Below are positions 4,901 to 55,100 of a stretch of DNA of 64,000 nt, piece by piece. Both the position numbers and the translations under genes were made by a program. The stretch comes from a virus (Duplodnaviria; Heunggongvirae; Uroviricota; Caudoviricetes), in the IMG/VR virus record IMGVR_UViG_3300020050_006655; one strand, given 5' to 3'. How positions within the stretch are numbered: position 1 is the stretch's first letter; every line of letters begins with the position of its first letter. Below the pieces are notes generated by a model. The model did no database searches and was not told the DNA's origin. It saw only the letters and a program-made list of their open reading frames with translations.

Positions 4901-4912
4901 CAATTAATTATT

Positions 4913-5572: not shown

Positions 5573-5624
5573 GCAAAACCATGTACGTTGACCGTGTACA
5601 ATATGGTTTTGCTTTATTTTTATT
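5573..5624 (+). terminator. putative rho-independent terminator
   Basis: Hairpin of about 10 bp, gcaaaaccat...atggttttgc, followed by tttatttttatt. Confidence 0.4.
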
Positions 5625-5627
5625 ACA

Positions 5628-5891
5628 ATGAAATACAAGAAAATTATCCGTCCAGATACGGATGCTGTACAATCACATACTACCATTCGTGGTATGAAAT
5701 TGGCCATGCGCCAAGGTAAAGTGAAAGAAGGGGTTTTCCATTGTTATTGTCCAAATGGTAACATACATACTTGGGAAATCAAACAGTCCGGTACTCATAC
5801 GTGTGCTGGTTCTACTGGAACTAAGGGTAAGATAGGTAAAGGTGTAACAGTAACAAACTATGCTGCAAAATTTATACCAAAAGTAAAATAG
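5628..5891 (+). CDS. small Cys/Gly-rich hypothetical protein (87 aa)
   Basis: ORF. Its stop is adjacent to the start of the next gene. Confidence 0.35.
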   Translation: MKYKKIIRPDTDAVQSHTTIRGMKLAMRQGKVKEGVFHCYCPNGNIHTWEIKQSGTHTCAGSTGTKGKIGKGVTVTNYAAKFIPKVK

Positions 5892-30553: not shown

Positions 30554-31246
30554 ATGAAATTTAACGTATTCGGCACAAAAGCATCGGAAAGATTTGCAGG
30601 ATTGGAACTACCGGAAGATGTAAAGAACTTCGGTCAACTGGTTCAATTCCTTATAACAAAACACAACATTGATGTAACAGGTTTCAAAGTGACTTGGTTT
30701 GCAAATGGTGATCCACTTCATAATTCAAGTCCTGAAACAGCAATGGCATCCATTCCTATAACGGACGGATTCTCTATTGCTCTTACCCCTCACACAACCA
30801 ACAAAGGATTGGGGTATAATGAAATGAAATCCTTTGTAAAGGAACAACGTCAAAAAGCAATTAATGCTGGTAACAAGCATATTGTTGAATTGATTGGTGA
30901 TTATTCGCGTCTTACTGCTGCACAAATGACAGCATTGTATAACAGGCTTCAACCTACTAATACAACAGCAACAGTTGTAACAAACAATCAAACCAGTACA
31001 ACCAGTACAAATGAACTTGCTAATATGGAAGCACGGGTAGGTCGTTTGGAAGTAAAACTTCAAACACTTGAAACTCGTATTTCTGCTTTAGCAGACCGTT
31101 TGGCAGATGTTGACGAACTGGAAGAAGATGAAAATGATGAACTGGAATATGAATCCAGTGATCCAGAGCCTGTAGTTCAAAGACCTACTGTAGTAGAAGT
31201 ACCGGATGATATTCTGGCTTATATGCAATCAAAAGGTGTAAGATAA
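30554..31246 (+). CDS. protein with N-terminal ubiquitin-like (β-grasp-like) domain, central coiled coil and acidic C-terminus (230 aa)
   Basis: The first ~88 aa (MKFNVFGT...IPITDGFSIALTPHTTNKGLG) align by eye with the ubiquitin β-grasp pattern and end in GLG. The remainder is Gln/Thr-rich coiled coil followed by a DELEEDENDELEYE stretch. Confidence 0.4.
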   Translation: MKFNVFGTKASERFAGLELPEDVKNFGQLVQFLITKHNIDVTGFKVTWFANGDPLHNSSPETAMASIPITDGFSIALTPHTTNKGLGYNEMKSFVKEQRQKAINAGNKHIVELIGDYSRLTAAQMTALYNRLQPTNTTATVVTNNQTSTTSTNELANMEARVGRLEVKLQTLETRISALADRLADVDELEEDENDELEYESSDPEPVVQRPTVVEVPDDILAYMQSKGVR

Positions 31247-31260
31247 TTGTCTTTAAAAAA

Positions 31261-31294
31261 GGGGTTAGCAATAACCCCTTAATTTTTGTTTTAT
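31261..31294 (+). terminator. rho-independent terminator
   Basis: ggggtta-gcaa-taacccc hairpin followed by ttaatttttgtttt. Confidence 0.5.
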
Positions 31295-32207
31295 GACAAA
31301 AGAAAAAATCAAGAGTTTTGTATCTGATATAGAATTTTTCTCAAGACAAATAAAAGAAGTTGATGATTTTGCTGATTGGTTATTTGAGTTTCTTGAAGGG
31401 TTGGGTTGGGAATGGGATTGTTCAAGTACAGTTATTGTATTAAAATATCCTGATTCTTTTTGTACTAATGTTTATGGTCAAAAAACACCTATAACAGATT
31501 TGTATGTAAAGATTGACTATAATGGAGATGTTGAAATGAGACGATGTAGTTTTACTTATGCACAAGAAGCAAGTAGATATCTTCATTCTCATGTAAATAT
31601 GCAAACACAATTATATAGTTGGTCATCATCTATATGTTTTGGCCCTAACATGTCTTTTAGAGAATCTAGTTTACCGTTTGACGAACAGTTGATAAGGATA
31701 GTATCATTACTTCCAGATTTCATTGAAACAGAATCAACAAACCATAGTCCATATTCATACATTTCCAAATTACCTCTTTATTCAAATCAATATAGAGATG
31801 TAGTAATGATAGGCCGGGTATCTGATTTTATCAGTAAAGTTCCCATACAAGTATCCTTACCAAGCATTAATGGTGCTTACCAAATATCAATAAGTGCTGA
31901 TAAAGAACTAACAGATAAATGGTTAATAGAAAATAACTTTACAGGTTATTTTGTTAATAGTCTTTGGTATAAAGATTGTATAAATGAAGACAAACCAGAA
32001 ACAAGAAGGCCAATTACTTTCAAGTTTCGAGATGAACCTGTTGTCTTAGTTATCAAATCAGATACAACAGATACAGTAAATACAGCAAACAAAATACCTT
32101 GCGAAATAGCAAGAGAAAGAATATTAAAAGACGTTTATGACTCAATTATCAACTCAACAGATTTCTGGAAAGAAATCATCTCTAGCACTGGTACACTCCG
32201 ATGTTAA
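31293..32207 (+). CDS. hypothetical protein (304 aa)
   Basis: ORF. It contains HSHVN...SSICFGPN, a weak E2-like resemblance that is speculative. Confidence 0.45.
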   Translation: MTKEKIKSFVSDIEFFSRQIKEVDDFADWLFEFLEGLGWEWDCSSTVIVLKYPDSFCTNVYGQKTPITDLYVKIDYNGDVEMRRCSFTYAQEASRYLHSHVNMQTQLYSWSSSICFGPNMSFRESSLPFDEQLIRIVSLLPDFIETESTNHSPYSYISKLPLYSNQYRDVVMIGRVSDFISKVPIQVSLPSINGAYQISISADKELTDKWLIENNFTGYFVNSLWYKDCINEDKPETRRPITFKFRDEPVVLVIKSDTTDTVNTANKIPCEIARERILKDVYDSIINSTDFWKEIISSTGTLRC

Positions 32208-32829
32208 AATACCAGTAAAACTTACAAAACCGTTCATAGACGCTTGTCAAGCAGCGTGTAACAAGTTTCCAAATATCGAATGGTCAGGAATCTGTTTCTA
32301 TAAATTGTTTAATGTTGAATCTGTTCAACAGTTAAATATTGAAATATTTGATTTCCTTCCACTATCTGCCGATACAGCAGCACATACAGGATTTACTTAT
32401 GATGCTACTTATCTTCAATACTTGATGGAAAGAGGTCAAGACCCAATGGCTGTACAGTTGGGTGATATACACTCACATAACAGAATGGATGTATTCTTTT
32501 CATCAACGGATAATCAGGATTTGGCAGATAATACACAATACTATGACTACTTTTTGTCGGTAGTATGTAACAATGCGGGACGATTCTGTATTAAACTGGC
32601 TATACCAGCAAGTACGTCTTATGAGATCAAACATCCAACAACAGGTAAAATAGAAAAATTTATCACAAGTAACCAAGCACTTATATTTGATTGTGATGTA
32701 ATCCTACCAGAAGGTTTCAAAGCAGATGATATATTTATGTCTTGGTTGGATAAAGTTCAAGCAAAAACACTAGCACCAGTGTCAAGCATGTTTCCTAAAG
32801 GAAATGGAACATATGAATCCTACAGTTAA
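32137..32829 (+). CDS. JAB/JAMM (MPN+) metallopeptidase-domain protein
   Basis: Exact JAMM motif H-x-H-x7-S-x2-D in GDIHSHNRMDVFFSSTDNQ, with an upstream Glu (NIEIFDF). The true start may be an internal Met because the 5' end overlaps the previous gene by 70 nt. Confidence 0.55.
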   Translation: MTQLSTQQISGKKSSLALVHSDVKIPVKLTKPFIDACQAACNKFPNIEWSGICFYKLFNVESVQQLNIEIFDFLPLSADTAAHTGFTYDATYLQYLMERGQDPMAVQLGDIHSHNRMDVFFSSTDNQDLADNTQYYDYFLSVVCNNAGRFCIKLAIPASTSYEIKHPTTGKIEKFITSNQALIFDCDVILPEGFKADDIFMSWLDKVQAKTLAPVSSMFPKGNGTYESYS

Positions 32830-33199
32830 GAAAATACCTTATCAAGGATCTTTTAATTTTGAAGAAGATAGTTATTTGGCCAACCGGAATACTTATACTC
32901 CAAACAAAGTTGTTAAAAAGACTTTGCCGATTAACGACTTTATTCAAGAGTATATATTTGAGGATTATTCGGTTAAGACAATTGAACAACTGATGATGGA
33001 ATATCAACATCAGTTTCCAATTGAATTGGTTAATTTTGAGGACTTTGTTGAAACAACAGGTGTTACGAATCAAGAACTATGTTCTTATATCCAAAGAAGT
33101 GTAACGGCTATCATACCGTACAAATCAAAAAATCAGAATCTTGAAGAACTGATTCCAAATCTGAATCGGTTAATTAGAGAACTAAATCAGTTAAAATAA
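32804..33199 (+). CDS. hypothetical protein (131 aa)
   Basis: ORF between the JAB and E1-like genes. Confidence 0.4.
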   Translation: MEHMNPTVKKIPYQGSFNFEEDSYLANRNTYTPNKVVKKTLPINDFIQEYIFEDYSVKTIEQLMMEYQHQFPIELVNFEDFVETTGVTNQELCSYIQRSVTAIIPYKSKNQNLEELIPNLNRLIRELNQLK

Positions 33200-33843
33200 T
33201 GAACACAAATAGATATAAAGATGCTGATTTCATGCAGATTCCGCCAATGGATATACTGTTTGTAGGTCTTGGTGGTATTGGTTTTGGTACAGCAAAAAGA
33301 TTACTTGACTGTCAACAGAAACTGACAATCTTTGAACCGGATACTGTATCAGAACACAATTGTATTCCACAAGGATTTGCAAAAGGTCAGATAGGTCAAA
33401 CAAAGTTTAAGTGTCTGGAAGATTATCTAAAAGGTTTTGTTGGTAATGCCCAAATTGAGTATTATACAGGTAAATACCAAAATGATTCTATAGCATATCC
33501 TATTATGGTATCTGCTGTTGATAATTATGAGACAAGAAAAATTATGTTTCATAACTGGAAACAGCAGGAAGATCGTGAATTATTTGTTGATGGTAGATTG
33601 TTGGCAGAATTCTTTCAAGTATTCGCTATTACACCAGAGAATGAAGATTGGTATGAAACAAATTTCTTGAATGGAACTGTTGATGATAATGATGGTGTTA
33701 TGTGTACTTATCAGCAAACAAGTTTTGTAGCATCTATTATTCATGGCGTAATTACACAAAAGATTCTAAACTATGGAACAGGAAAGCCTTTCAGTAGATT
33801 TACAGAATACAACGGAATTATTGATTCCTTTAGATCTGAATAA
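33199..33843 (+). CDS. ThiF/MoeB/E1-like adenylating enzyme (minimal, 214 aa)
   Basis: ILFVGLGGIGFGTAKRL (GxGxxG) followed by KLTIFEPDTVSEHNCIPQ (hLxxxDxDxVxxSNLxRQ-like). Then KxxxLxxxhxGNxQIEY and VSAVDNYETRKIM (DNxxxR), with a Cys further downstream. The order and spacing match the E1 Rossmann fold. Confidence 0.55.
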   Translation: MNTNRYKDADFMQIPPMDILFVGLGGIGFGTAKRLLDCQQKLTIFEPDTVSEHNCIPQGFAKGQIGQTKFKCLEDYLKGFVGNAQIEYYTGKYQNDSIAYPIMVSAVDNYETRKIMFHNWKQQEDRELFVDGRLLAEFFQVFAITPENEDWYETNFLNGTVDDNDGVMCTYQQTSFVASIIHGVITQKILNYGTGKPFSRFTEYNGIIDSFRSE

Positions 33844-34159
33844 CTTTCAATTTGGTGAAACTCACAATTTCACAGGAAGTTATAAATACTATTTTCCTTT
33901 TGGTTTCTTTATAAGAAATAGTATTGATCGCCCACTTTGGAATAGGATTGAATCTGTTCCTTCTTATTGTTCTACAAATACTTGGAGATATGCTTCAAGA
34001 ACAATAGCAAATCATAGTTTATATAATTGTGAAATAGGCGGTAAACGGTATACAATTGGAAAAAACTGTATCTTTGATAAAGACTTTAACTTGTTAGTTT
34101 ATGTAAAGAATGCTCATTATAGTTCCAGATTTACTTATAGAAAATTTATGTTAGACTAG
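33773..34159 (+). CDS. hypothetical protein (128 aa)
   Basis: ORF overlapping the 3' end of the E1-like gene. Confidence 0.35.
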   Translation: MEQESLSVDLQNTTELLIPLDLNNFQFGETHNFTGSYKYYFPFGFFIRNSIDRPLWNRIESVPSYCSTNTWRYASRTIANHSLYNCEIGGKRYTIGKNCIFDKDFNLLVYVKNAHYSSRFTYRKFMLD

Positions 34160-34325
34160 GTTCGTTTATTGACGGTCGATCTGAAAAAAACGCACTGGCT
34201 TATTTCAGAAGTAATTCTGAACATCTTGAATTTGTTGATGACATGTCACCTTTTTGTTTTAGACTTAACGTTAATTTCAAAACAAGATTTGAAAAGAAAG
34301 CATTTGATGTAAAACTAACTGAAAT

Positions 34326-35048
34326 ATGCAACAACTTACTGAAAGCATCATAAGAAACATTCATCCGTCGTTTCTTAGACTACTTCAATGTCCAGCAGAA
34401 AAAGATGGTTTGGTTATAGATTATTTAGATGATGCAATAGAAAAAGTATTACGTCATAAACAGCAATACAAGTCTAAACTTTGTCCCGATAGTCCAGACA
34501 AGATTTTAAAATGTCTTGAGATTGATCCGAACAAAATTAAGGTTGTTATTGTTGGACAGGATCTATATCCTCAACCGGGAGTTGCAACAGGACATGCTTT
34601 TGCTTGTATTGATGGTAAACAACCATCTATGCAAATTCTGATTAGAGAACTTGAAAAAGAATACGGACTATCTGATCTTGCTCAAACGTTTGATACAACT
34701 CTAAAACATTGGACAGATCAAGGAGTTTTACTTCTCAATTCAAGTTTATCTTGTGATGAGTATAAGCCGGGATCACATGCTGAATATTGGAAAGAATTTA
34801 TGGTAGAATTGATAATCACGTTAAACGATTTGTTTATCTCAAGAGAAGAAACGAAACCTATTGTTTTTGTTTTATTGGGAAGACAAGCACAACTGTTTAA
34901 CAGGCTTATTAAGACAAAGTGGAACTTTTTAATTCAAAGATGTCATCCTGCTGCTGAAACACATGGAGATCATAAATTCGTTGGATTCTTTAAAGAAGTA
35001 AACAGATGTCTTGTTGAATCAGGACAAGTAGAAATATCATGGAGTTAA
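34326..35048 (+). CDS. uracil-DNA glycosylase (family 1-like)
   Basis: VVIVGQDLYPQPGVATGHAFA aligns with the UNG motif [20 protein letters not shown]. C-terminal HPAA...H resembles HPSPLS. Confidence 0.55.
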   Translation: MQQLTESIIRNIHPSFLRLLQCPAEKDGLVIDYLDDAIEKVLRHKQQYKSKLCPDSPDKILKCLEIDPNKIKVVIVGQDLYPQPGVATGHAFACIDGKQPSMQILIRELEKEYGLSDLAQTFDTTLKHWTDQGVLLLNSSLSCDEYKPGSHAEYWKEFMVELIITLNDLFISREETKPIVFVLLGRQAQLFNRLIKTKWNFLIQRCHPAAETHGDHKFVGFFKEVNRCLVESGQVEISWS

Positions 35049-36315: not shown

Positions 36316-36785
36316 ATACACTGAAAGTAGAAAAATTAACAGAGACAGCAAAACTACCAGTTAGAGCAGAAGAAGGTTCTGTAGGACTTGATGTATTTGT
36401 TGATTCAATCAGTATTAGAGAAGGAGCCTTGTGCTACAATCTTGGTATAGGAATTGAACCACCAGCAGGATTCTTCGCTATGTTAGTTCCAAGAAGTAGT
36501 CTGTCAAAAGTAGAATGGGTATTTGGTAATTCTATCGGAATTATTGATCCTTCATACAGAGGTGAACTACAAATAAGAATGCGTCCTGTAGGAACCGTAA
36601 CACTTTTGAACGAAGAAGGTATTATCACGTCTACTCATAGTAAGAGGCAAGATCTTCCATACAAGATTGGAGAGAGAGTTGGTCAATTGATTCTTGTACC
36701 TGCTATTTTTGCAGAAGTGAAAGAAGAAACTCTTTCTAAAACAACAAGAGGTGTTGGAGGATTTGGCTCAACAGGCAAGAAATAA
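36312..36785 (+). CDS. dut: dUTP diphosphatase (dUTPase)
   Basis: Canonical motifs GSVGLDVF, GIIDPSYRGEL and RGVGGFGSTG. Confidence 0.75.
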   Translation: MNTLKVEKLTETAKLPVRAEEGSVGLDVFVDSISIREGALCYNLGIGIEPPAGFFAMLVPRSSLSKVEWVFGNSIGIIDPSYRGELQIRMRPVGTVTLLNEEGIITSTHSKRQDLPYKIGERVGQLILVPAIFAEVKEETLSKTTRGVGGFGSTGKK

Positions 36786-37906
36786 TGTTGGTGTGTAAAC
36801 TAATCTTTGTAGATCCTGTTTCTAACCACAACAAGTTCTACAATATGGTAGAAAAGAACGGTGAAATAGAGATTGAGTTTGGTCGTGTTGGTGCTGGTAG
36901 TCAAAAAGCAAAATGTTCTACGAGTCAGTTTTCAAGTAAGAAAAATGAAAAGTTGAGAAAAGGATATATTGATGTTACACACTTTTTGGAAGAAAAATCA
37001 TCTGAATTATCTTTTGATGGAGTTGATCCAAATATCAAGTTGTTGTTTGAGACATTGATGAAATATGCCAATGAATCAGTTGTAAAGAACTACAATCTAA
37101 ATCTTGGTTCTGTAACAGAACTACAAATTAAAGATGCTCAAACAACTCTTGATAATATAGCAAAGGCAACATCAATAGAACACATACAGGTATTATGTAG
37201 AAACCTGTTTATAATTTTTCCAAGAAAAATGCACAGAGTAGTTGATTATATACCAACGTCTGACTGGAGTACGGAAAGGTTAAACAAGTTTCTATCTGAT
37301 GAACAGGATACTCTTGATTCATTGAAAGGTATGGTTACACAAACAACATCTAACTTGTTTGATTGTGGTAACTATAATCTTAGATCAATTGAATATCGTC
37401 CAGAATCAACTATTGAACTTGACTCACTAAGAATTAGAACACCTAAAAAGATATTCAGAGTAGAACACAACAAACAAAGTTTCTTTGATGAACACGTTAA
37501 TCAATCTAGTAATAAAACAACAAGATTGTTAATTCATGGTTCAAGAAGTCAAAACATATTAAGTATCCTAAAGAACGGATTATTAATTCGTCCTACAGGT
37601 GCTTATTATTCTGGTTCTGCTTATGGTGATGGTGTTTATCATGCTGATGTACTTGATAAGAGTCTTGGTTATTGTGGTTATACACCAGACAAGTTCATTA
37701 TGATCCAAGACGTACATCTTGGAAATACATATCAGTACACAGGAAGGAATAGACACGACAAACCAACAAACTTCTTCACCGAAACAGGATTGCAAAAAGA
37801 AGGATGTGATTCTCTTTTTGCTAAAGGTGGGAACGATCTAATAAACAATGAATACATTGTTTATAATTCTAAACAAACAATAATAAAATATCTACTATGG
37901 TATTGA
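36785..37906 (+). CDS. poly(ADP-ribose) polymerase homolog (WGR domain + PARP catalytic domain)
   Basis: N-terminal WGR-like NKFYNMVEKNGEIEIEFGRVGAGSQ. Catalytic signature LLIHGSRSQNILSILKNGL, GDGVYHADVLDKSLGYC and NNEYIVYN (His-Tyr-Glu triad context). Confidence 0.6.
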   Translation: MLVCKLIFVDPVSNHNKFYNMVEKNGEIEIEFGRVGAGSQKAKCSTSQFSSKKNEKLRKGYIDVTHFLEEKSSELSFDGVDPNIKLLFETLMKYANESVVKNYNLNLGSVTELQIKDAQTTLDNIAKATSIEHIQVLCRNLFIIFPRKMHRVVDYIPTSDWSTERLNKFLSDEQDTLDSLKGMVTQTTSNLFDCGNYNLRSIEYRPESTIELDSLRIRTPKKIFRVEHNKQSFFDEHVNQSSNKTTRLLIHGSRSQNILSILKNGLLIRPTGAYYSGSAYGDGVYHADVLDKSLGYCGYTPDKFIMIQDVHLGNTYQYTGRNRHDKPTNFFTETGLQKEGCDSLFAKGGNDLINNEYIVYNSKQTIIKYLLWY

Positions 37907-39223: not shown

Positions 39224-39416
39224 AGCATTGGAAAATGCTAAATATAATGTAGATAATATACCGAAACTAGGATCGTTTTTAATTCCGTTGGTTAAAATGC
39301 AATTGGAAAATAGTATAATCTTACTTGAAAAAGGTTATCCTGTTCATACTGAAATGGACAATCTCCTAGAAAGATATCCAGATTTAAATAATGCGCCTGA
39401 TTATGAAACTACTTAA
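39207..39416 (+). CDS. small hypothetical protein (69 aa)
   Basis: ORF. Confidence 0.3.
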   Translation: MTTILEALENAKYNVDNIPKLGSFLIPLVKMQLENSIILLEKGYPVHTEMDNLLERYPDLNNAPDYETT

Positions 39417-40176
39417 CAAGAAAAGATATATTGAAGATAGAAAATGGTTTAGATTCTATCCTAAATGGGATAGAAACCATACCACCATATCTGAATCTCA
39501 ATATTTTGATCCAAGGCCTACAATACACATCCAACTCACAACAGTCTTATCATTACTTCTAATTCCTTTTCTTGGATGGTATTCATTGATCCTATTGCCA
39601 TTTATCTTTTATGGATGGGGAGATATGTATATATCATTACCCTTAGATTCAGGTATTGAAGATTCGGCAGACTATAAAGAATTTGGATTTTACTTTTATG
39701 GTGAGCCAAAATTCAATATAGAATGTCTTGTTATTCAAATGGGGAGAGATGAAGGTGGTATATACATATATATGCCTTGGTCATTGAAATGGTATAGAAC
39801 TTCAGCATTACGAAAAGATGGTGAATGGGAACATGAGATAGGAAAACATAACAAAGAGTTCTACAATACAGAAAAATGGAAAGATATTCTTTTCTATGAA
39901 ACACATCCTTATACCTATACAACATCTTATAATGAAAAACAAAATGCCTTAGCTACAATTAGAGTAACCGAAAGAGAATGGAGAAGAAGATGTTTGTTTA
40001 ACTTTACATTACTCAATCGTGTTACTAGATCTATTAATGTTGAATTCTCGGAAGATATTGGCGAAAAGAAAGGATCGTGGAAAGGTGGAACGGTTGGTTG
40101 TTCTTATGAATTATTACCTAACGAATCTCCGTTTGAATGTTTAAAACGAATGGAGAGAGAAAGAGTTTTTAAATGA
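39391..40176 (+). CDS. membrane hypothetical protein (261 aa)
   Basis: Two transmembrane helices (LLLIPFLGWYSLILLPFIFYGW). Confidence 0.4.
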   Translation: MRLIMKLLNKKRYIEDRKWFRFYPKWDRNHTTISESQYFDPRPTIHIQLTTVLSLLLIPFLGWYSLILLPFIFYGWGDMYISLPLDSGIEDSADYKEFGFYFYGEPKFNIECLVIQMGRDEGGIYIYMPWSLKWYRTSALRKDGEWEHEIGKHNKEFYNTEKWKDILFYETHPYTYTTSYNEKQNALATIRVTEREWRRRCLFNFTLLNRVTRSINVEFSEDIGEKKGSWKGGTVGCSYELLPNESPFECLKRMERERVFK

Positions 40177-41431: not shown

Positions 41432-41716
41432 ATGACAACAAGCGATAGAATTAAAGATTTAGAAACACAATTAGGAGTTTTGTGTTTGACTAAACCACCA
41501 CAAATAAATCAAGCAGAGCCAGAGTTTTTCAAGTTTCAGGTTCCAGTACCATTGTTTGTAAACGATGTTCAAATTACAGTTCATAAAAACAATTTGAATA
41601 TACCGTCTGTAATTGAAAAAATTATTATAGCGGTGTATGAGGCTGGTTGTAACAACGGTATAGTACAAGGTAATAAACAGATTGTAAACAAGTTTAAAAC
41701 TTTATTTGAGATATGA
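41432..41716 (+). CDS. small hypothetical protein (94 aa)
   Basis: ORF. Confidence 0.35.
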   Translation: MTTSDRIKDLETQLGVLCLTKPPQINQAEPEFFKFQVPVPLFVNDVQITVHKNNLNIPSVIEKIIIAVYEAGCNNGIVQGNKQIVNKFKTLFEI

Positions 41717-42990
41717 TTACTCAAACTAAGATAGGATTGAATAGTAGAAGTGAAGCAAACCCGTTCAACGAGGACGGATTTCTTCCTTTGATTACAGCAC
41801 CAATGTATTCTGTGGTAGACGAATCTAATTATCAGTTATTTCTTGATAATAAGGTTCAGGTTTGTTTACCAAGAGGATTGGGGAAAACAAAAAACAACTT
41901 TGATACAAGTTACCCAATGTTTGTGAGTCTTTCTTTGGACGAGTTTGAAGAACAGTATATAAACGATAAAACACCTTTAAACGGTTTTACAAAAAAAGTT
42001 TGTATTGACACAGCAAATGGTAATATACCTAATCTTCACGATTTTATTAGAGAGGCCAAACAGATTCATGGTAACAATCTTATAATCATGGCTGGTAATG
42101 TAGGTTCAGTAGAAGCATTCGTTGAACTTGCTAAGACTGGTTGTGATTATATTAGGGTTGGAATAGGTGGTGGAGGTGGATGTAATACTACATCTAATAC
42201 TGGAGTTGGACAATACGATCTACATGACTTAATAACGTTTTGTAAATATCCAATTGAAGATGCTATAAAAACATTGAAACAAATAAAAGAAGAAGGGAAA
42301 AGTGAATTCTATCAACGACATGGATTTGGTTCTTCTGTAGGAACATCGCTTATAGAGACTCATTACAATGATACAGTAACCATGTCCAAAGTCAAAATAG
42401 TAGCAGATGGTATTTCATCTTATATTAACTATTGTCAGAAAGAATATAACTTTAATGATAATGGTTATGCTGCTATTAATAAACTATTACACGCTGGTGC
42501 TGATCTGGTAATGGTTGGTAAATTGTTTGCTCAATGTGTAGAATCGGCTGGTGAGAAAGGTATTCAACAAATGCACGGAGTTGAATCGTTTGAACACTGG
42601 CAAGAAAGTAGGAAAAATCTTTTTGGCCTTCCTGATTTATCCACACCATCTAAATATTTTAAGGTAACTAATAAGTATTTAATGGTTAAATACTCTGGTA
42701 TGTCCACACAACAAGAGCAGAAGAAGTATAAACCAGAATTATGTGATGTTAACCTTTTATCTCAACCTAAACAACTATTTGATGGAAGTTGGGAATATGA
42801 GGTGGAGACAGTTGGTGACTCTTATCAAGTAATCAAACCGTCAGAAGGATCTGTTCAATGGATTCCTGTTAGATGGACATTAAACGAATGGTTGAATGGA
42901 TCAGATAAACAAGATGAAAGTCCTTATTTAATGGGATTTGTAAATGCTTTAAAATCAATGATGGCTTATACAAACAGAACTAAATTATAA
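41713..42990 (+). CDS. IMP dehydrogenase / GMP reductase family TIM-barrel enzyme
   Basis: PLITAPMYSVVDE (compare PLxSAxMDTVTE). Catalytic Cys loop IRVGIGGGGGCNTTSNTGVGQ (compare GIGPGSICTTR...GVGxPQ). GADLVMVGKLFA (compare GAxxVMxGSLLAG). Confidence 0.6.
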   Translation: MITQTKIGLNSRSEANPFNEDGFLPLITAPMYSVVDESNYQLFLDNKVQVCLPRGLGKTKNNFDTSYPMFVSLSLDEFEEQYINDKTPLNGFTKKVCIDTANGNIPNLHDFIREAKQIHGNNLIIMAGNVGSVEAFVELAKTGCDYIRVGIGGGGGCNTTSNTGVGQYDLHDLITFCKYPIEDAIKTLKQIKEEGKSEFYQRHGFGSSVGTSLIETHYNDTVTMSKVKIVADGISSYINYCQKEYNFNDNGYAAINKLLHAGADLVMVGKLFAQCVESAGEKGIQQMHGVESFEHWQESRKNLFGLPDLSTPSKYFKVTNKYLMVKYSGMSTQQEQKKYKPELCDVNLLSQPKQLFDGSWEYEVETVGDSYQVIKPSEGSVQWIPVRWTLNEWLNGSDKQDESPYLMGFVNALKSMMAYTNRTKL

Positions 42991-44108: not shown

Positions 44109-44508
44109 TTTTGATGGAACAGTTGTAACACATGTTTGGCCTGAAATTGGTGAAGATATTGGTGCTGTTCCTGTACTAAAAGAGTTAGTTGCTAAAGGGC
44201 ATAATCTGATTCTCTTTACAATGAGATCGGGTGAATCGCTAAAAGAGGCTGTAAAATGGTTTAAATTACAGGATATTCCTTTGTATGGAGTACAATCAAA
44301 CCCAACACAACATACTTGGACATCTTCTCCAAAGGCTTACGGGCAACTGATTATTGATGATATTTGCTTAGGTATTCCTTTAATTCATAATGCTGTAGCA
44401 TATTGGGATAAAGAAGACTATCAAGAAATAAAACTACCTTATTCGGAAAGACCGTATGTGGATTGGGTAAAAGTAAGACAAATGTTAATTCAAAAACGTA
44501 TTTTATGA
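44092..44508 (+). CDS. HAD-superfamily phosphatase (nucleotidase / polynucleotide 3'-phosphatase-like)
   Basis: N-terminal MDILIDFDGTVV (DxDGT motif I). Also ...LFTMRSG and ...IDD. Confidence 0.55.
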   Translation: MDILIDFDGTVVTHVWPEIGEDIGAVPVLKELVAKGHNLILFTMRSGESLKEAVKWFKLQDIPLYGVQSNPTQHTWTSSPKAYGQLIIDDICLGIPLIHNAVAYWDKEDYQEIKLPYSERPYVDWVKVRQMLIQKRIL

Positions 44509-45704
44509 TTCAAGTACTAACAATTAAAAACAAAATTCCTCTTTTTAAAGGAGAAGTGCCAGCAGAAAAGATCGAACTTCTACAATTTGAAGAAGTTGAT
44601 TTTGAAGTGGTAAGAATGAAAGGGTTGAACGAAGTCAATGAACAAGTTCTATTTGTTTATCCAGATTACTGTTTACCAGACAATGAACTATTTACAGAGT
44701 TTGTAAATCCCTCTGACGGATCAAAATCTAAACTTGGTGGTAATAACCGAGTAAGAGCCATTAAATTTAATCTTCACAGAGGTGACAATGAACCCGTATA
44801 TAGTAATGGTATAATCTTCGGATTCAATGAAATCCAAGACTATCTAAGATTGTACAAACCTAATCTTCAAGAAGCTTTTGAAACGCTTGAAAGTGAAGAT
44901 TTGGGTATTACAAAATGGGTTACAGAAGAAGATCGTCCGGGTAATACTGGTAAATCAAGAAGTGGTAAACCATTATCATCATTTATTTACAAGACAGATG
45001 AGCCAAACATTCTTGCTGCAAGACTACCGTTTCCGGCAACTTATAGAGGAACTGTTAAAGTAGATGGTTCGAGTATTACAGTCTTTGCTACATCTGATGG
45101 ACAGTATGGTGTATGTAGTAGAAACTTAACTAAAGATCTAACTGTTCAAAAAGTTATTGGTCAAAGAAAACTGAAATGGTTTGAGTATATTACACGGTTG
45201 TTTAAACCAATTAATCTGAATATTTATGAAACAGTTCCATCTGATGATAAATTTGTTGTTGCAGCAAGACCATATTTGCAAGTGTTAAATCAATGTACAC
45301 AAAAATACGGTTCATCAATTGCTTTAAGGGGTGAATTGTGTGGTCAAGGTAATAGTGGTTCTGGTAATGCTAAGAATCCACATGCTAAATTACCGTCACA
45401 GATTCTTTGGTATAATCTTGATTCAATCGAAACGAAAAACAAACATCGAACGGCTATACCAATGATGTTTGAAGATTTACAAAATGCTGTTGATTACTTA
45501 AATGAATTTGACTACGGTGTTAACTTCAAAACGGTTGATTCAATCTTTAATAGAGAATTTCAATCAAAAACCGAACTTGTCCAGTTTTGCTATGATTATT
45601 TCAAAACAAATATGATTGAAGGTATTGTAGTTAAGACAACAAACGAGAAAGGGCAAGTTGTTAGTGCTAAAGTAATGAACTTAGAATACGATTCTAAAAA
45701 ATGA
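44463..45704 (+). CDS. ATP-dependent polynucleotide ligase (RNA-ligase-like nucleotidyltransferase)
   Basis: Motif I TVKVDGSSITV (KxDG). Motif IV IEGIVVKT (EGhVhK). Downstream Lys present. Confidence 0.55.
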   Translation: MGKSKTNVNSKTYFMIQVLTIKNKIPLFKGEVPAEKIELLQFEEVDFEVVRMKGLNEVNEQVLFVYPDYCLPDNELFTEFVNPSDGSKSKLGGNNRVRAIKFNLHRGDNEPVYSNGIIFGFNEIQDYLRLYKPNLQEAFETLESEDLGITKWVTEEDRPGNTGKSRSGKPLSSFIYKTDEPNILAARLPFPATYRGTVKVDGSSITVFATSDGQYGVCSRNLTKDLTVQKVIGQRKLKWFEYITRLFKPINLNIYETVPSDDKFVVAARPYLQVLNQCTQKYGSSIALRGELCGQGNSGSGNAKNPHAKLPSQILWYNLDSIETKNKHRTAIPMMFEDLQNAVDYLNEFDYGVNFKTVDSIFNREFQSKTELVQFCYDYFKTNMIEGIVVKTTNEKGQVVSAKVMNLEYDSKK

Positions 45705-48140: not shown

Positions 48141-51100
48141 TTAGTTCTGTTGACCAAGATATTGGACATCATCAGACATCACGTTAAAGAACTGGAACAA
48201 TCCACCAAAACCGGGAATCCAAGCATGTGTGTATGAACCAATATTCTTTCTGTCGTCTGAATCCTTCTCACCAGTAATTAATGTTTTTTCTCCAAGAGTT
48301 ATGTTACCTTGACTTACGTCATAAAGTTCATCAAACATGTTATTAATCGTTTTAACAGCATCTTGAAGAAGACCTATCATTGGAATAGGGTTTTTTGTAA
48401 GATTGATAAATTCTGTTGGATTAACAAAGAAACTAATTTCTTGTTTCACTTTAAGAATTACAGACACAAGTTTTTTGGTTAAGAAATACTTCTTATAATC
48501 CTTTTCCCCATCATCGTCCCAATCTCCCATAGCAAGAGTTGCAAGTAATAAGAAACCAAGTATAATACGAAGTTCAATAATAGACGCTTTAAGTTGTTTC
48601 TCTTGAACACTTCTAAATTCCTTGTAAGATACTTTACCGTCATATTGTGGATTTCTTGCCAGCCAGTTCTCATACATCAATCTTGCCGTACCATCGTCCT
48701 TCATCTTAAATCCTTTAAAGTACCCACCAATGGTATGGAAACTTGCTACTTGCATTGCAAGTTGACCTAGTTTTGGAAGAACAATATCTCTAACAAAAAG
48801 GCCAAGTTGAAGATTTTCATTTTGACTATTTATTTTTTGCGTCCCAAATTCCTGCATAATTGCGGTGAATCTACCCATATAAACAGTGTCAACACGTTTG
48901 TCATACTTAACCTTACCAAATCTTTCGGTCATTACACCGGGCATCCACGATTTAAAGTTACCTACGAGTGTTCCTACCAATTGTCCTTGCCATACAGCCT
49001 TATCTTCTTCTGGTATGGTTCCTTTAATACCTGACTGTACAACTTGTACAGCACGTCTAAAAGCAATCCATATTTGTTTCTGTTGATCTTCTGGTATGTT
49101 AAGTGTAGCCTTACCATCTTCATACTTAAATAGGTCTTTGATAAACCTTCCTTTATACTTTTCCTTATCTTCTGGAAACTGGACTTTTTTAAGTAGACCG
49201 TCCGGTGTTACATAATAATTCTGACTAAGCGCGTATGTAACTACTTCTTCAATGTATTCATCACCTATACTATAAGGCTTCATAAGCAGTCTTGAATTAA
49301 CATACTTATTGATAAAACCACGTTGGGACGAATCACCCAATTGCGTTTCTCCAACGGTAGATTCTTCCAATCTTACTGCCCCATATCTATGACCCATTGG
49401 ATCGAAGTATGCAGATAGTGCTAGAAACTCCTTACGTGACTTGTAAGAGGCTTTTATTGATTCGGAGTATTGTTGCTCGTCATAATAAATGCCTGTCTTA
49501 CCAGTGATTACAGACTGAATCTTGGCTGCTATAAAACCGCCTGTTGCAGATAGTATATTAAAGCCAAGTTTCTTGATCGTAAAGTAGTTCTTCATTTGAA
49601 GAAGCATCTTTTCGGTCTTACCACTTTTATCTCCAATAACAGGTTCAACAGATAAACCATAAACATACATCTGAACAAAACGATCAAATGTTTTTACAAT
49701 ATCTGTTTCACTTAACTTTTGGGTAAAGTTATTACCAAGCAAATTTGTCTTTAACCCTCTATCAGATTGTTGTAACTCAAGTCCTTTTTCAACAAGTAAT
49801 TCTCTAAGACCAAGTACCTCACCTTCAATCTTGGTCATTTCATCATAGTTATAAGCCATCTTAGCAAACAACAATAAACTACGTCCAAGTTGATATGATT
49901 TCTCACCATTGATTATATTACCATCCTTATCCCTAAACGGGTTAAGAAAGAACTTGGGAATAGAATCTCTTTTAAGATATGAATCATCAGACGATCTATC
50001 ATCTTCTCGAACTGAAAAGTCTTTGATAAAATCATCAACACTTGAAGATACACCTTTCATACCCCATTCATCAATACGTTCAGATGCTGATTTACGAATG
50101 TTAGGAATAAAGTTGTTTGGTAATTGTTTATATTCAACACCAAGCATCTTTCTAAATTCACGATTCTTTGATTCAAGCAAATTGTAATAATTCAGAAACT
50201 CTGGAACCTGTCTGATCTTTTCAAATTCAGCACTATAGACAATAACATCTTCTTTAAAAGTCAATTTACCATTTGCTCTGGCATTCTTCCAAGCAAGTGG
50301 GAACATTGCTTTCCCATTGGTTTTTAATTCAAGACTGTTCCTACCGTCCCATTTTTCCAATTCACGTTGTACCCTTGCAGGATCACTTGGATATAGACTA
50401 TCTAATTTCTTCTCATAAACGTTACGTCTTTCTTTCCAGTCGTAATATTCAACAACATTGAATTGATTTGGATAATCCTCTCCCGTCCCATCAGAAACTT
50501 CTTTTAGCCATTTTTTATCAGTCTTTTCAATAAGATTATCTTCCCTATTGATTATAAGTTTGATAAAATCTTGCCAAGTCATTCCTTTTTGTTTCAGGTA
50601 TCTGATTACATCATTTTCTGTTTTAACAACCTGTTCTGTTAATTCGTCAATCTTCTTATTCTTTTCAAAATGTGCCTTATCTAATTTAGCACGTAATGTT
50701 TGAAAGATAGGATTATTAAACTGGCTAAGTTGATAAAACCATGCCGCAAAATAACCTTCTGGACTGAAAGGAATAATATTACCTGCTTCATCAACAATCT
50801 TTTCACCTGTTTCTTCTGCAACAACACGGGCTAATCTATGATTGAACCATTCCTGTTTTACCCTTGCAAGTGTATCGTTGATGAGTGTATTGATGATTAT
50901 AGTTTGTTGTTCAATAGCAGATGTATCAATTCCCTGATCGTTTAAGAACTTACGATATTCAAATGTGGCATCGTTAAGTGTTTTAAACAAATTCAATTCG
51001 TTATAAATGTTTCCTAAATCATCAATAGACAAATCATCCATATTCTCTAACTGTTTGTTAATATGGATTACAAACTCTTGAATAGCATTTACAGACTTCT

Positions 51101-52142
51101 TGGTTATGATCTCCTGTTTGATCTTTTCAAGATCTGCTATTTGCTGATTTACATACTGACGTTTGGACACATCCTTATTACGGGCAAGTCTTTCTATACG
51201 TGCATCAATCTTACCCAAGAAATCATCAAGTGATTCAAAACCTGTTTTCTCTGTAAAAGGAATAATCTCATCAATTAACTTATCTTGTCCCGGCCCTGCA
51301 ACATACTGAATCTTGTTATCAAATGTTTTGGTTCTACTATTAAAAGCAGAAAACAATTTAATCGGAATAAGCCTATTACTATAAACACCTTTAAAACCAT
51401 ATCTCTTTCTAAGAATACTAGCATACATACTTATTTGAGTCTTATATTTCTCAAGTGACTTATAGTGTATCAATGTTACATCAGGTTTCAAATCACCAAC
51501 AGCATCCAACGATTCTCTTTTAGAAGATATGGTCTTGTAATCTCGGATAACAAACGTATTGTCTGAAAGAATAGCAAGGAAGTCTATTGTACCACCGATA
51601 TTATCAACAGGATCAATAACCAGATGTTCCAACTTAACAACAGGTAATTCATTCACACCTGTCTTTTGGTTAATTGCTTGTTGTGCTTGATAAACAAATA
51701 CAAATTGGTTTCTAATTATATCAAACAGGTTGTCTCTGGATTTTTGATCCAAAGTCTTACCTGTTTTTTTTAAACCCTTTTGACGTATTGAGGTAAGTAT
51801 TCTCAATGATTCGGTAACACTTTTACCAGATAATTCATCAAGAATCTGTTGACCATATTCTTCCAGTACATCATGTACATAATTACCTGTTTCAGCAGCA
51901 CCCTCACCTCTTTCAGATTCAAATGTTTTATTCCCTTGAATCTTAGTTGTTACTGTTGTTTTAAGTTTGATGTCTGGATTATCAACCAGAACATACTTAC
52001 CATTATCTTTAACAAACTGAACATTGTCAGAATCCAAGTATTCCAAGGATTCTGACCTGTTCATATTTTGTCTAACCACATGAAAAGCCTTGTGATTATC
52101 TATTGCTGTTTTAATATCTGATTGTGTAGGACTACACCTCAT
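48141..52142 (-). CDS. giant hypothetical protein (1333 aa), probable virion/cargo-type protein
   Basis: Uninterrupted 4 kb ORF. Its start overlaps the stop of the upstream 3116-aa gene. No motif recognised. Confidence 0.6.
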   Translation of the reverse strand: MRCSPTQSDIKTAIDNHKAFHVVRQNMNRSESLEYLDSDNVQFVKDNGKYVLVDNPDIKLKTTVTTKIQGNKTFESERGEGAAETGNYVHDVLEEYGQQILDELSGKSVTESLRILTSIRQKGLKKTGKTLDQKSRDNLFDIIRNQFVFVYQAQQAINQKTGVNELPVVKLEHLVIDPVDNIGGTIDFLAILSDNTFVIRDYKTISSKRESLDAVGDLKPDVTLIHYKSLEKYKTQISMYASILRKRYGFKGVYSNRLIPIKLFSAFNSRTKTFDNKIQYVAGPGQDKLIDEIIPFTEKTGFESLDDFLGKIDARIERLARNKDVSKRQYVNQQIADLEKIKQEIITKKSVNAIQEFVIHINKQLENMDDLSIDDLGNIYNELNLFKTLNDATFEYRKFLNDQGIDTSAIEQQTIIINTLINDTLARVKQEWFNHRLARVVAEETGEKIVDEAGNIIPFSPEGYFAAWFYQLSQFNNPIFQTLRAKLDKAHFEKNKKIDELTEQVVKTENDVIRYLKQKGMTWQDFIKLIINREDNLIEKTDKKWLKEVSDGTGEDYPNQFNVVEYYDWKERRNVYEKKLDSLYPSDPARVQRELEKWDGRNSLELKTNGKAMFPLAWKNARANGKLTFKEDVIVYSAEFEKIRQVPEFLNYYNLLESKNREFRKMLGVEYKQLPNNFIPNIRKSASERIDEWGMKGVSSSVDDFIKDFSVREDDRSSDDSYLKRDSIPKFFLNPFRDKDGNIINGEKSYQLGRSLLLFAKMAYNYDEMTKIEGEVLGLRELLVEKGLELQQSDRGLKTNLLGNNFTQKLSETDIVKTFDRFVQMYVYGLSVEPVIGDKSGKTEKMLLQMKNYFTIKKLGFNILSATGGFIAAKIQSVITGKTGIYYDEQQYSESIKASYKSRKEFLALSAYFDPMGHRYGAVRLEESTVGETQLGDSSQRGFINKYVNSRLLMKPYSIGDEYIEEVVTYALSQNYYVTPDGLLKKVQFPEDKEKYKGRFIKDLFKYEDGKATLNIPEDQQKQIWIAFRRAVQVVQSGIKGTIPEEDKAVWQGQLVGTLVGNFKSWMPGVMTERFGKVKYDKRVDTVYMGRFTAIMQEFGTQKINSQNENLQLGLFVRDIVLPKLGQLAMQVASFHTIGGYFKGFKMKDDGTARLMYENWLARNPQYDGKVSYKEFRSVQEKQLKASIIELRIILGFLLLATLAMGDWDDDGEKDYKKYFLTKKLVSVILKVKQEISFFVNPTEFINLTKNPIPMIGLLQDAVKTINNMFDELYDVSQGNITLGEKTLITGEKDSDDRKNIGSYTHAWIPGFGGLFQFFNVMSDDVQYLGQQN

Positions 52143-55100
52143 AATTTACATTGAATTTGTACCTGACCATTTTCGATCAGTTGTGCATAGGCTGTTTTAT
52201 CTTCTTCCGATAAATGCAAGTAATCATCAAAATACCTGTCCCAATTGTTCACAACATCTTGACCCATTTGACCAAGACTTGTTTCCATTTGTTTCTGGTT
52301 ATATTCTGCAACTACCCTATTATCTTGTTGTTGCTTACTGATAGTATCAACATCATTGGATATTCTTAAATACCATTTATCGTTTGGTGCTTTATAAAGA
52401 TTAAGTGATTTACCAAATTCACGATTAACCTTTGCTATGTCTTTCAATAGACTTGGCCAATCAGCATTCTTGTTTATCTCTTTCGATCCTTTATATTTCA
52501 CACCATACTTATTGAGTATCTTTTGATATTCTTTTTCAAGACTTGTTTCACGTTGCAATGATTCAAACAAATCAATACCTAAAGATTCTTCACGTTCTAT
52601 CTGATTTAATAGATTTTCTGCATGGAACATTACTTCTTCAAACAATGTATTCTGTTTGGGAGTAAACTGAAACAGTTTAGAAAACCATTCGATCAATTTG
52701 GTCATTACATTGGAACCTTGATATGGAATCTGTTGTAGGGCCAACATAAAATTACGTCTCGTAAATATACCAGTGATAAACTCATCTAAATCTTCAAGAG
52801 GATAAATAGCCTTTGGATCAATACTCATTGCTTTACTCCTTGTATAAGCAAGTAACTTTTCGAGTTCTTGAACTTCTTTACTATTTGGATTATCTCGAAT
52901 ATACTGATGTGTTATGGCGTGAATTTGTTCATGTAATATTGTTCTACTTGGAAACATTACCTTAGGTGAAATCTTGATTTCTCTTGTTGAAGGAAAATAT
53001 GCGGCCAAAGATTCACCATAAATACGTCCAGTATCAGTACCCTTAACAGGATTAGGTAAAACATTCTCTGTAATCATAACAGGTACGTTAGATTTAAATC
53101 TAAGTAATCTGGTAGCAAGAGGACTAAGAACATCTGAACTATCTGCTATATGCTGAACATATTGTCTCGCATTAGTAAATCCAAGATTAAAAATTGGGTC
53201 TTCTGTTTGTGTTGTTTCTCCAGTATCGGGTAACGGCTTAGAATCAATTTTTTCAACTTCAAATCTTGTATTATGAACAACAAGTTTATTCTTACTTCTT
53301 GACATTGCAACATAAGCAAGTGCTTGTCTTTCCGTTGTTACTTGTACGTTATTTTGATCTACAATTGGAATATTTGTTGCAGGACTTAAAGAATCAGCAT
53401 TGAAATAAACATTTTCGATTGTTGCACCTTGAGACTTGTGTATTGTTATAGCATGACCATAATCAATATCTTTTTCAAACTTTAAAGAGCCAAGACCTTC
53501 CGTTTTTATGTTTTTATGTTTTACCGCATCAAATAATTCCATTTGATCTGTAGACGGATTAAAAACATAAGTGTTACCAACAGACACTTTTCTTAAAGCA
53601 GCACCGATACTTTGTAGTTCTTCAATATATACACCATAAGATATTGATTTATTCTGATAATTTTTATTAAGATTATGAATCTGTTTAAAGTATGAAGAAA
53701 CATCATTATTATTATTCGTAAAATCTTTTGACGTTAAATGGTTAAACGTTAAACTGTCATTCAGCGATAATTGAAAATAATTAGTGTAGCCTGTTGGTGG
53801 AATACCACCTATCCCCATTTCAGATAAACGATCTAACTTATCAGATTTTATAGTCAGTCCAACCGATGATCCTGTCTTGTCAAATTTTACAATCTTATAT
53901 TGTATTGAATTTGCAACATCTCCTTTTTCAATTTGTTTTGTACCATAACCCAAATAACCAATAACAATATCACCAATCTGTGTTTCTCCAACACGACCAA
54001 GAACCTCTCTTGCTTTTTGATTAATTGTTTGAACCTGTGAATTTGTATAAGAAATCTGAACAGTGTTTGTTGGATCAGCCTGTAAATCATTAACATACTG
54101 TTTGTTAAATTCTGCCAACGGTAAAAACTGAACAGAATCATTGTTTATTCTTGGCTGAAACAACTTAAACTCTGTTTGAATTCTCATTTTACTAAGCAAG
54201 TCAAGAAGAATGTTGTTTTTTTGACGAAAAACCTGATTCAAACTTAACTGTTTAAATCGTGTAAAAGCAGGTGATAAGTTTTTTACGGATGGATTTCCTG
54301 TCATAACTTGAGGAATCTGTTTGGAATCTCCCATAAAAATTAACTTAACTCCAGCGTTTTTAGATGCTTCAACAAGTAACCTTACATCCTTTTCACCAAG
54401 CATTGAGGACTCATCTACAACAACAACCGAATTATAACCTATGTATTTGGTAGCAGATGAAGTAAAGAAGCCTTCACGTTTATTTGTACCAAGAATTTCT
54501 TTTTCATATACTGATTTGGCAACAGTCAACGGAAGTTTATTATTACCCGTTTTTACAGTAGCAAAAGCAAGTTCGGCTACAGCAGCATGTGTTGGAGCCA
54601 TATACAAAAAAGATCTGTTTCCAAAATATTTTTGCAGATAACCTATAACAGATGTTTTACCTGTGCCAGCAGCACCCTGTAAAGTTATAGCAGGATCGTT
54701 AGATGATTCAACATAATCTATTAAATCTCTTAATGCTTTAGATTGATCTACACCTAATTCAAATTCAGTCTCTATTGTTTTTCCTTTATAAGAAAATACC
54801 AACTTACCCAAACGGTTAGATTGTGACTGACTCTGATTTTCATCAGATTGTTTATTAAGAGTTTTAGGTTGTTGAACAATTAAACCACTGACATGATACC
54901 TCTTAACATTCCTATCACCCAAAAGAGGGACAACTATTTCTTTCCCCTTTTCTTCTCCCTTTACAACATACACAATAGATTTCTGACCAGTCTGATAATC
55001 AGTTACATTTTTCTTTCTAACAACATTTGCGTTATATCTTGAAGCAAGAAAGTTGGGGTTGTTAAGATTGAAAAGCATTAAGAACTTATCAATCATCAAA

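Follow-up and report, generated by a model that had tools for sequence, protein, structure and literature searches.

A four-gene cassette on the + strand of a 64 kb stretch of viral DNA (IMG/VR record IMGVR_UViG_3300020050_006655, Caudoviricetes; hereafter the window) encodes a ubiquitin-like protein (Ubl), a protein of a sequence-orphan family, a JAB/JAMM metallopeptidase and a minimal E1/ThiF-like adenylating enzyme, named below by the first position of their open reading frames (ORFs; table 1). The Ubl, the JAB protein and the E1 probably form one functional unit. That the whole cassette amounts to a phage-encoded pathway of Ubl protein conjugation, laid out like the Bil system of bacteria and built from minimal parts, is a reading to which we give an even chance.

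To our knowledge, every demonstrated case of Ubl conjugation in prokaryotes is one that bacteria use against phages (Bil, Bub and type II CBASS). The relatives of the cassette are found in crAss-like phages; Crassvirales are among the most abundant viruses of the human gut, and most genes of their replication block are without known function. An earlier note on this DNA had drawn attention to the cassette, and the ORFs that it named are all present.

Gene order and distribution of the cassette

Starting from the E1, we collected 82 phage loci and built iterative profiles for each gene. The order Ubl, 31293 family, JAB with its C-terminal domain and E1 is contiguous in about 75 of these 82 loci (architectures 58+4+3+2+2+2+2+2+1+1, the rest being cut by contig ends), counts that do not represent independent events, as many of the loci are closely related Steigviridae. 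Diverse lineages nevertheless agree on the cassette, namely the window clade, six further lineages (L010, L011, L013, L014, L027 and L087), the Fpv phages and the Steigviridae. Searches by tblastn with JAB and with E1 retrieved an identical set of 74 phage records. The uracil-DNA glycosylase (UDG) gene lies 3′ of E1 in most lineages and between the primase and Ubl genes in others; in both arrangements, the Ubl gene keeps with the cassette, and where UDG has changed sides it lies beside the 31293-family gene and not beside the primase gene.

In the phage records searched, protein-level relatives of the E1-like gene come only from crAss-like phages: Bacteroides phage crAss001 and other Steigviridae, DAC15 and DAC17, and the Flavobacterium psychrophilum phages Fpv/FpV4. 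Intestiviridae were not among the BLAST-level matches to E1 or JAB in these records, and the region had no match in phage records when searched as nucleotides, so that the relatives there are detectable at the protein level only. Close relatives with 94–98% nucleotide identity are held by several JGI and Logan metagenome assemblies. A search for cellular relatives of the phage E1 returned a single match in 185 579 species genomes, on a 3.7 kb contig of a Spirochaetia metagenome-assembled genome that is probably phage DNA, and none in plasmids, so that no bacterial source of the cassette could be traced. The components are partly known to databases already, since in crAss001 Gp76 is annotated as ‘thiamine biosynthesis protein ThiF’ and Gp77 as ‘metalloprotease domain containing protein’, Gp78 and Gp79 being hypothetical. 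A full-text literature search, in which few subscription journals were covered, found no paper tying crAss-like phages to ThiF, JAB or Ubl systems.

Two junctions of the cassette are distinctive. An intrinsic-terminator-like hairpin with a T-rich tract (fold dG −13.4, z −4.3) follows the Ubl gene in the window, and 62 of 77 loci have a hairpin with a T-tract at this place (21 different hairpin sequences in all), as compared with 2/64, 0/78 and 0/81 loci at the other cassette junctions. Structure is thus conserved where sequence is not, which fits a modifier made in excess over its enzymes. The 31293 and JAB ORFs, for their part, overlap by 71 nucleotides (nt) in the window (32137–32207), with JAB in the +1 frame; the overlap measures 44–107 nt in most loci, and 75 of 77 loci have JAB in the +1 frame. 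Coupled translation might account for this, as might a frameshift producing a fusion protein. Because many loci are related and each ORF was started at its first start codon, we take the overlap as a possible sign of coupling only.

The E1-like enzyme

The 33199 protein is an enzyme of the E1/ThiF superfamily, as had been suggested from its motifs. Pfam ThiF (PF00899) matches its residues 11–205 (195 of 214) with E = 2.3e-11 and 43.8 bits, the cut-off being 28.1. A dehydrogenase identity was rejected, NAD_binding_7 scoring under its cut-off and ThiF over its own. Searched against the PDB, a profile of 26 family sequences gives UBA5 as best match (E = 2.7e-17), with further matches to MccB, UBA6, PaaA, ThiF (3e-13), Uba1, NAE1/UBA3, SAE2, TcdA, MoeB (7e-11) and Cap2.

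The residues that are invariant, also in comparison with Escherichia coli ThiF and MoeB, comprise the glycines of the GxGGxG loop (G23, G25, G26 and G28; the loop reads GLGGIG), R5, D48, N54, Q58, K69, D108 and R113. Among the catalytic residues of MoeB, R14, N70, K86, D130 and R135 are matched in the alignment and an equivalent of R73 is missing. The motifs read in this ORF by the earlier note therefore stand for the Gly-rich loop, D48, N54, Q58, D108 and R113, and fall for the arginine of ‘SNLxRQ’, to which we return below. Cys169 (codon 33703–33705), in the crossover loop, is invariant in 26 diverse homologues and shares an alignment column with ThiF C184 and MoeB C187; from this alignment, it is the candidate acceptor of the activated C-terminus.

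The enzyme is without both zinc CxxC pairs, without a separate Cys domain and without a ubiquitin-fold domain. Its best NCBIfam match is ThiF, with 36.9 bits, far under the equivalog cut-off of 159, and PADLOC returns for it only models of the CBASS E1–E2 protein (Cap2), all weak. The E1s of crAss001 type carry a small lineage-specific N-terminal extension domain, for which no link to the other cassette families was found.

The JAB/JAMM peptidase

The 32137 protein is, on the strength of its motif and profile matches, a JAMM peptidase, and it groups with ubiquitin/Ubl isopeptidases and Prok-JAB. The exact JAMM motif noticed previously is there: HSHNRMDVFFSSTD at nt 32470 fits HxHx7Sx2D and is the sole in-ORF match in the window (six-frame translation; 0.19 expected), and all of 23 diverse homologues keep E48, H112, H114, S122 and D125. 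The window protein alone stays under the Prok-JAB cut-off (19.3 versus 25 bits), and 19 of the 23 family members match Prok-JAB (best E = 9e-7). None of the 23 matches RadC; the RadC-like repair protein that had been envisaged as an alternative was accordingly rejected. The family profile finds Pyrococcus furiosus JAMM1 (E = 4.8e-6), then CSN5 (1.6e-4), AMSH/AMSH-LP and Rpn11, and PADLOC gives a JAB model only, weakly.

The ORF boundaries from which the earlier note had worked (32137–32829) leave out the C-terminal part of the protein. In L003 and L004, the DNA of which is 97–98% identical, the JAB domain and the 32804–33199 product make up one protein of 354–356 amino acids (aa), and in all other relatives they make up one of 318–440 aa; an in-frame ORF of about 354 aa exists in nine close relatives (L003, L004 and seven from independent assemblies). 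In the window, the variable linker between the two domains lacks 2 bp net, at about 32832–32845, and this splits the gene. An exact-sequence look-up of the truncated ORF found no record anywhere, which fits a frameshift private to the window assembly. Gene fission, loss of function (a pseudogene) or a misassembly could each explain the split. The downstream piece has its own ATG at 32804, and both halves might still be made.

An interruption of another kind was observed in phages of Fpv1, Fpv2 and Fpv20 type, in which the JAB gene lies in two pieces around an oppositely oriented ‘endonuclease’ gene. In the Fpv2 example (locus L088, NC_031931), the stretch concerned is 3599–5891 and the endonuclease gene lies at 4115–4864, with the break just 5′ of the HSH motif; in FpV4 and Fpv3, the gene is intact. 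This looks like a homing-endonuclease insertion.

The Ubl protein

The 30554 protein consists of a β-grasp (aa 1–79, nt 30554–30790), a flexible basic tail that closes with the invariant Lys84-Gly85, a helical region (aa 88–132), a coiled coil (aa 152–186) and an acidic C-terminal tail. Its N-terminus models as a ubiquitin-like β-grasp: the AlphaFold2 (AF2) model has a ββαββ…β topology over residues 2–79, with a predicted local distance difference test score (pLDDT) of 60–78, and the structures that match it best are those of Ubl domains and of ubiquitin, rather than of ThiS or MoaD. Both structure models used here, this one and that of the 31293 protein, are of moderate or low confidence.

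The highest conservation in the whole protein falls on T78, K84 and G85. K84 and G85 sit in the flexible or disordered tail, six residues past β5 (Gly codon 30806–30808); in ubiquitin, RGG occupies the equivalent tail position. The tail has a single Gly preceded by Lys or Ser, and no Gly-Gly. Thus, from a Ubl domain said to end in GLG, the β-grasp is retained and the GLG is not, only its first Gly (G85, together with K84) being conserved. Searched against Pfam, the family gave nothing beyond coiled-coil noise. At least 4458 proteins in a collection of 5.8 billion belong to it at E ≤ 1e-3.

The middle protein

An E2-like role of the 31293 family is our hypothesis, suggested by where its gene lies, by its invariant His and its invariant Cys and by a fold signal that is weak; this is not an assignment to the E2 family. 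In 145 representatives, H100, C115 (codon 31635–31637) and G117 are invariant, and P53, Y96, H98, S99, E147, S148, P153 and F245 nearly so. The motif is Y-x-H-S-H … C-x-G. The pattern HxN…IC proposed earlier was therefore right as to the conserved His and Cys and wrong as to the Asn, N102 being variable.

Searches with this family were uniformly negative. The window protein has no match in Pfam, PHROGs, NCBIfam or PADLOC; 22 members gave none in Pfam or NCBIfam and 10 long representatives none in Pfam, UQ_con and Prok-E2_A-E included; profiles of 22 and of 145 sequences found no match in the PDB; and Foldseek of the model against the PDB yielded nothing under E 0.3. The AF2 model is poor overall (pLDDT 48), with an N-terminal half at pLDDT 57–83. 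This half begins with a helix and a β-meander, the last strand of which ends in the HSH; a loop with Cys115 and a long helix come next. The elements of the ubiquitin-conjugating (UBC) fold have this order. Unrelated α+β proteins score similarly. The family comprises 351 cluster representatives at 50% identity, and 148 representatives contained no fusion joining cassette parts (Ubl–E2, JAB–E1 and the like).

A possible conjugation pathway and its alternatives

The module reading is strengthened by the gene order kept in about 75 of 82 loci, by the occurrence of JAB and E1 in the same 74 records, by the agreement with the order BilA-B-C-D, which is Ubl, E2, deubiquitinase (DUB) and E1 (PMC11601596; 10.1101/2023.09.04.556158), and by the Gly at the position of a Ubl C-terminus. 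From the conjugation module of the earlier note, the E1, the JAMM peptidase and the modelled β-grasp thus remain and the JAB ORF boundaries do not; cleavage at Gly85, a thioester relay, an E2 role of the 31293 protein, conjugation to protein, the target and the biological role are inferences.

In such a pathway, the 30554 product would be made as a pro-Ubl, probably in excess over the enzymes, given the terminator-like hairpin 3′ of its gene. The JAMM peptidase (32137 with the C-terminal domain from 32804) would cut right after Lys84-Gly85 and release an 85-residue β-grasp with a free C-terminal Gly. Two precedents exist: the JAB of BubCD cuts the Ubl-X fusion BubAB immediately past a conserved Gly (PMC11601596), and JAB cleavage past a conserved Gly was predicted for phage TAPI/TAPK (PMC1779556). 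The minimal E1, probably a homodimer like ThiF/MoeB, would then adenylate Gly85 and load the Ubl onto Cys169, from which it would be handed to Cys115 of the 31293 protein acting as E2; the latter may pick the target itself, as proposed for the E2s of Bil. The final acceptor of the Ubl would be a lysine in a protein of the phage or of the host, modified in the early or middle phase of infection, and the JAMM peptidase might also reverse the mark. Extended to the relatives, this picture would have a large crAss-like branch (crAss001, DAC15/17 and Flavobacterium Fpv) run its own complete Ubl cascade in infection, tagging phage replication proteins or host proteins (e.g. defence factors) through an unrecognized orphan E2 family, a suggestion that we make tentatively and at somewhat less than an even chance.

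Several observations weigh against this pathway. The conserved Gly is internal in all members of the Ubl family, with a C-terminal extension of 60–170 aa; as no member ends at the Gly, proteolytic processing would be obligatory, and in lineage L014 Ala replaces the Gly altogether. In the E1, the Arg of ‘SNLxRQ’ (the MoeB R73 position) has given way to P57 in the window and to Pro or Gly in the family, and the size of the enzyme resembles more that of sulfur-carrier E1s. The HSH-x14-C motif of the 31293 protein differs from the HPN-x7-9-C of E2s by the missing conserved Asn and by a spacing of 14 instead of 7–9. The hairpin could equally separate two transcription units, the Ubl gene being co-transcribed with the primase operon. 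Finally, both the JAB gene and a fifth gene described below carry frameshifts in the window, so that the cassette may be impaired there, or the assembly wrong.

The closest competitor is a sulfur-carrier pathway, which we regard as unlikely. Here, JAB would expose Gly85, the E1 would adenylate it, a host persulfide would turn the Ubl into a thiocarboxylate, with an acyl-disulfide at Cys169 as in ThiF, and the 31293 protein would thiolate a nucleotide, a tRNA, a phage DNA base or a cofactor. The single-domain E1 of ThiF/MoeB size, its best NCBIfam match to ThiF and the alignment of its invariant Cys with the acyl-disulfide residue ThiF C184 all suit this scheme, as do the surrounding nucleotide-metabolism genes (UDG, dUTPase and IMPDH-like) and the Ubl/JAB/E1 triads known from sulfur-assimilation neighbourhoods (PMC1779556). 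However, no rhodanese, cysteine desulfurase, PP-loop ATPase or ThiG/MoaE-like partner is found in or beside the cassette, the zinc CxxC pairs of ThiF/MoeB are missing from the E1, the Ubl tail is a single Gly after Lys/Ser instead of Gly-Gly, the Ubl resembles Ubl domains and ubiquitin over ThiS/MoaD in structure, and the gene order is that of Bil. If this scheme held instead, it would point to an unknown thio-modification by crAss-like phages.

Two other explanations seem to us improbable, to a similar degree. The cassette might serve counter-defence, the phage JAB stripping host Bil marks or cGAS conjugates (like Cap3 in type II CBASS), with E1, E2-like protein and Ubl as decoys or competitors for Cap2 or BilD. 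Bil targets phage tail proteins (10.1101/2023.09.04.556158), for which reason a phage deubiquitinase would be useful; PADLOC matched only CBASS Cap2 models (E1) and a JAB model, all weakly, Cap2 is among the PDB matches of the E1 profile, and a 136-bit Acb3 match elsewhere in the window suggests that the lineage meets CBASS immunity. Yet deconjugation needs JAB only, whereas the four genes are strictly co-conserved, the adenylation residues are intact and E1 and the 31293 protein each have an invariant Cys, all of which argues for a working forward pathway; moreover, the similarity to Cap2/Cap3 is below that to generic E1/JAMM proteins, and the cassette lies inside the replication block and not amid typical early anti-defence genes. 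Alternatively, the E1 might adenylate the carboxylate of a peptide, a side chain or a nucleic acid, as MccB, PaaA and TcdA do, with JAB as a maturation protease and the β-grasp protein as an unrelated replication accessory next door. MccB, PaaA and TcdA do score level with true E1s (E from 1e-14 to 1e-11), the terminator-like hairpin parts the Ubl gene from the three downstream genes, and the coiled coil and acidic tail of the Ubl recall replication adaptor proteins. Against this, the 214-aa E1 is without the peptide-clamp N-domain of MccB/PaaA, the Ubl gene keeps with the cassette through rearrangements of its neighbours, and a conservation peak at a tail Lys-Gly is hard to explain for a mere adaptor.

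If the conjugation pathway is real, Ubl machinery works on the phage side of the conflict too, in Crassvirales, and the cassette would be the first ubiquitination system of a virus of bacteria, a mirror image of Bil defence. It would add a new E2-position family of at least 351 clusters and offer a minimal, genetically tractable set of E1, E2, DUB and Ubl, crAss001 and its host Bacteroides intestinalis being cultured. It would also provide a route to learn what a phage gains from tagging, be it replication control, host takeover or counter-defence.

Genomic context

The window has 33% G+C and carries + strand genes up to approximately 48 kb, where coding strand and GC skew flip. The cassette is surrounded by genes for a DnaB-like helicase, a Sak4-like ATPase, a primase, UDG, a PD-(D/E)XK nuclease and a dUTPase.

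Table 1. Cassette genes and other features of the window (positions are those of the window).
Feature	Positions	Strand	Basis or remarks
Pro-Ubl protein (putative), 230 aa	30554–31246	+	AF2 model and conservation
Intrinsic-terminator-like hairpin and T-rich tract	31259–31290	+	9-bp stem AAGGGGTTA/TAACCCCTT; in the 46-nt gap between the Ubl and 31293 genes
Candidate E2-like transfer protein, 304 aa, sequence-orphan family	31293–32207	+	Position, conserved His/Cys, weak fold signal
JAB/JAMM (MPN+) metallopeptidase domain, 230 aa	32137–32829	+	E48, H112-S-H114-x7-S122-x2-D125
C-terminal domain of the JAB protein (helical, unannotated); separate ORF in the window	32804–33199	+	Fused to the JAB domain in relatives
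Minimal single-domain E1/ThiF-like adenylating enzyme, 214 aa	33199–33843	+	Pfam, profile search, alignment
Fifth gene, crAss001 Gp75-like	33773–34159	+	Motif G..YYGG.G.ILDKD.N.L; 128 aa in the window
PARP-like ADP-ribosyltransferase	36785–37906	+	WGR (PF05406, 23 bits), then PARP catalytic domain (PF00644, 84 bits, E = 1e-23)
Strong Pfam match ‘CBASS inhibitor Acb3’	39391–40176	+	PF25187, 136 bits, E = 2e-39
IMPDH/GMP-reductase-domain protein	41713–42990	+	65 bits; downstream in the + strand block
RNA-ligase-domain protein	44463–45704	+	38 bits; downstream in the + strand block
Three very large ORFs (1333, 3116 and 791 aa)	48141–63855	−	

Next to E1, the fifth gene is homologous between the window clade and the Steigviridae and was detected in 65 of 81 loci; its family has no Pfam or PDB match. 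In the window it is cut short by a 1-bp deletion near 34139, the product in close relatives having 193 aa (stretch 33773–34354). Other close relatives show differing indels, which suggests that in this clade the gene is undergoing decay or is prone to errors. The PARP-like gene lies directly 3′ of the dUTPase gene. In a close relative (L089, from Logan SRR28520284), the gene at the place of the DnaB-like helicase (stretch 1–1998) is called as a 731-aa product with Hom_end_hint/LAGLIDADG matches, which points to a helicase intein in that strain; the helicase of the window has 349 aa and no intein.

Comparison with known systems

Several described systems contain parts of this set. In type II CBASS, it is the C-terminus of the cyclase itself that serves as modifier, and no β-grasp protein, and E1 and E2 are fused (Cap2), whereas the E1 of the cassette is unfused. 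Membership in type II CBASS was rejected on this account and because no CD-NTase or effector lies in the neighbourhood. PRTRC, a cassette of plasmids and integrative and conjugative elements, likewise combines a ThiF-family protein with a JAB-like ‘protein A’ and has no assigned function. PRTRC models match the phage E1 and JAB proteins weakly (E = 1.8e-8 and 1e-3), with scores far under their cut-offs (34 versus 144.75 bits and 18.6 versus 101.8 bits); neither ParB nor a homologue of PRTRC B–F was detected, the plasmid search gave no match, and membership was rejected.

ThiF/MoeB with ThiS/MoaD share with the cassette the size and domains of the E1, the aligned R5, N54, K69, D108 and R113, the correspondence of Cys169 to ThiF C184, a β-grasp partner with a C-terminal Gly (putative in the cassette) and the association with JAB (PMC1779556). 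The cassette differs in having no zinc CxxC, no Gly-Gly end, no sulfur-transfer or synthase partner and no MoeB R73 equivalent. A classical ThiF/MoeB sulfur-carrier system was rejected on the NCBIfam score (36.9 versus 159 bits), the single tail Gly and the fact that no partner genes were found nearby.

TAPI (Ubl) and TAPK (JAB-NlpC) of phages lambda and T1 are the only earlier noted pairing of a phage Ubl with JAB. As in the cassette, the Ubl has a conserved Gly followed by a C-terminal domain, and JAB is predicted to cut there (PMC1779556). However, TAPI/TAPK belong to the tail-assembly module and are without E1 and E2, whereas the cassette belongs to the replication module and includes an E1 and a Cys-bearing fourth protein. 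Type I Bub (6E/DUF6527) also has a Ubl precursor fused to a downstream polypeptide, cut by JAB past a conserved Gly, and minimal parts related to E1, E2 and JAB. It works with Ubl–E2 and JAB–E1 fusions, oxyester (Tyr/Ser) intermediates in place of a catalytic Cys and the serine protease BubE; the cassette has separate genes, both Cys invariant and no DUF6527 gene.

Bil (BilABCD) is the closest in layout, with four genes in the order Ubl, E2, JAB/JAMM and E1, no E3, a conserved Ubl Gly, in the cassette the putative site of activation, and a conserved Cys in both the E1 and the protein at the E2 position. The order matches if the 31293 protein is the E2, three of the four roles being verified, and no significant sequence match ties the cassette to Bil (NCBIfam, PADLOC). 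Bil sits in bacterial defence islands and the cassette in the replication block of virulent crAss-like phages. The E1 of Bil has an inactive adenylation, an active adenylation and a Cys domain (IAD-AAD-CYS) and that of the cassette a single adenylation domain of 214 aa; the Bil Ubl has two β-grasps and ends at its Gly, whereas that of the cassette has one β-grasp and a 145-aa extension; and, for the protein that stands in the E2 position of the cassette, no similarity in sequence to any E2 family could be detected. The cassette would thus be a minimal, phage-borne Ubl pathway of Bil-like type with an orphan family in the E2 position, working like Bil and Bub and being a member of neither.

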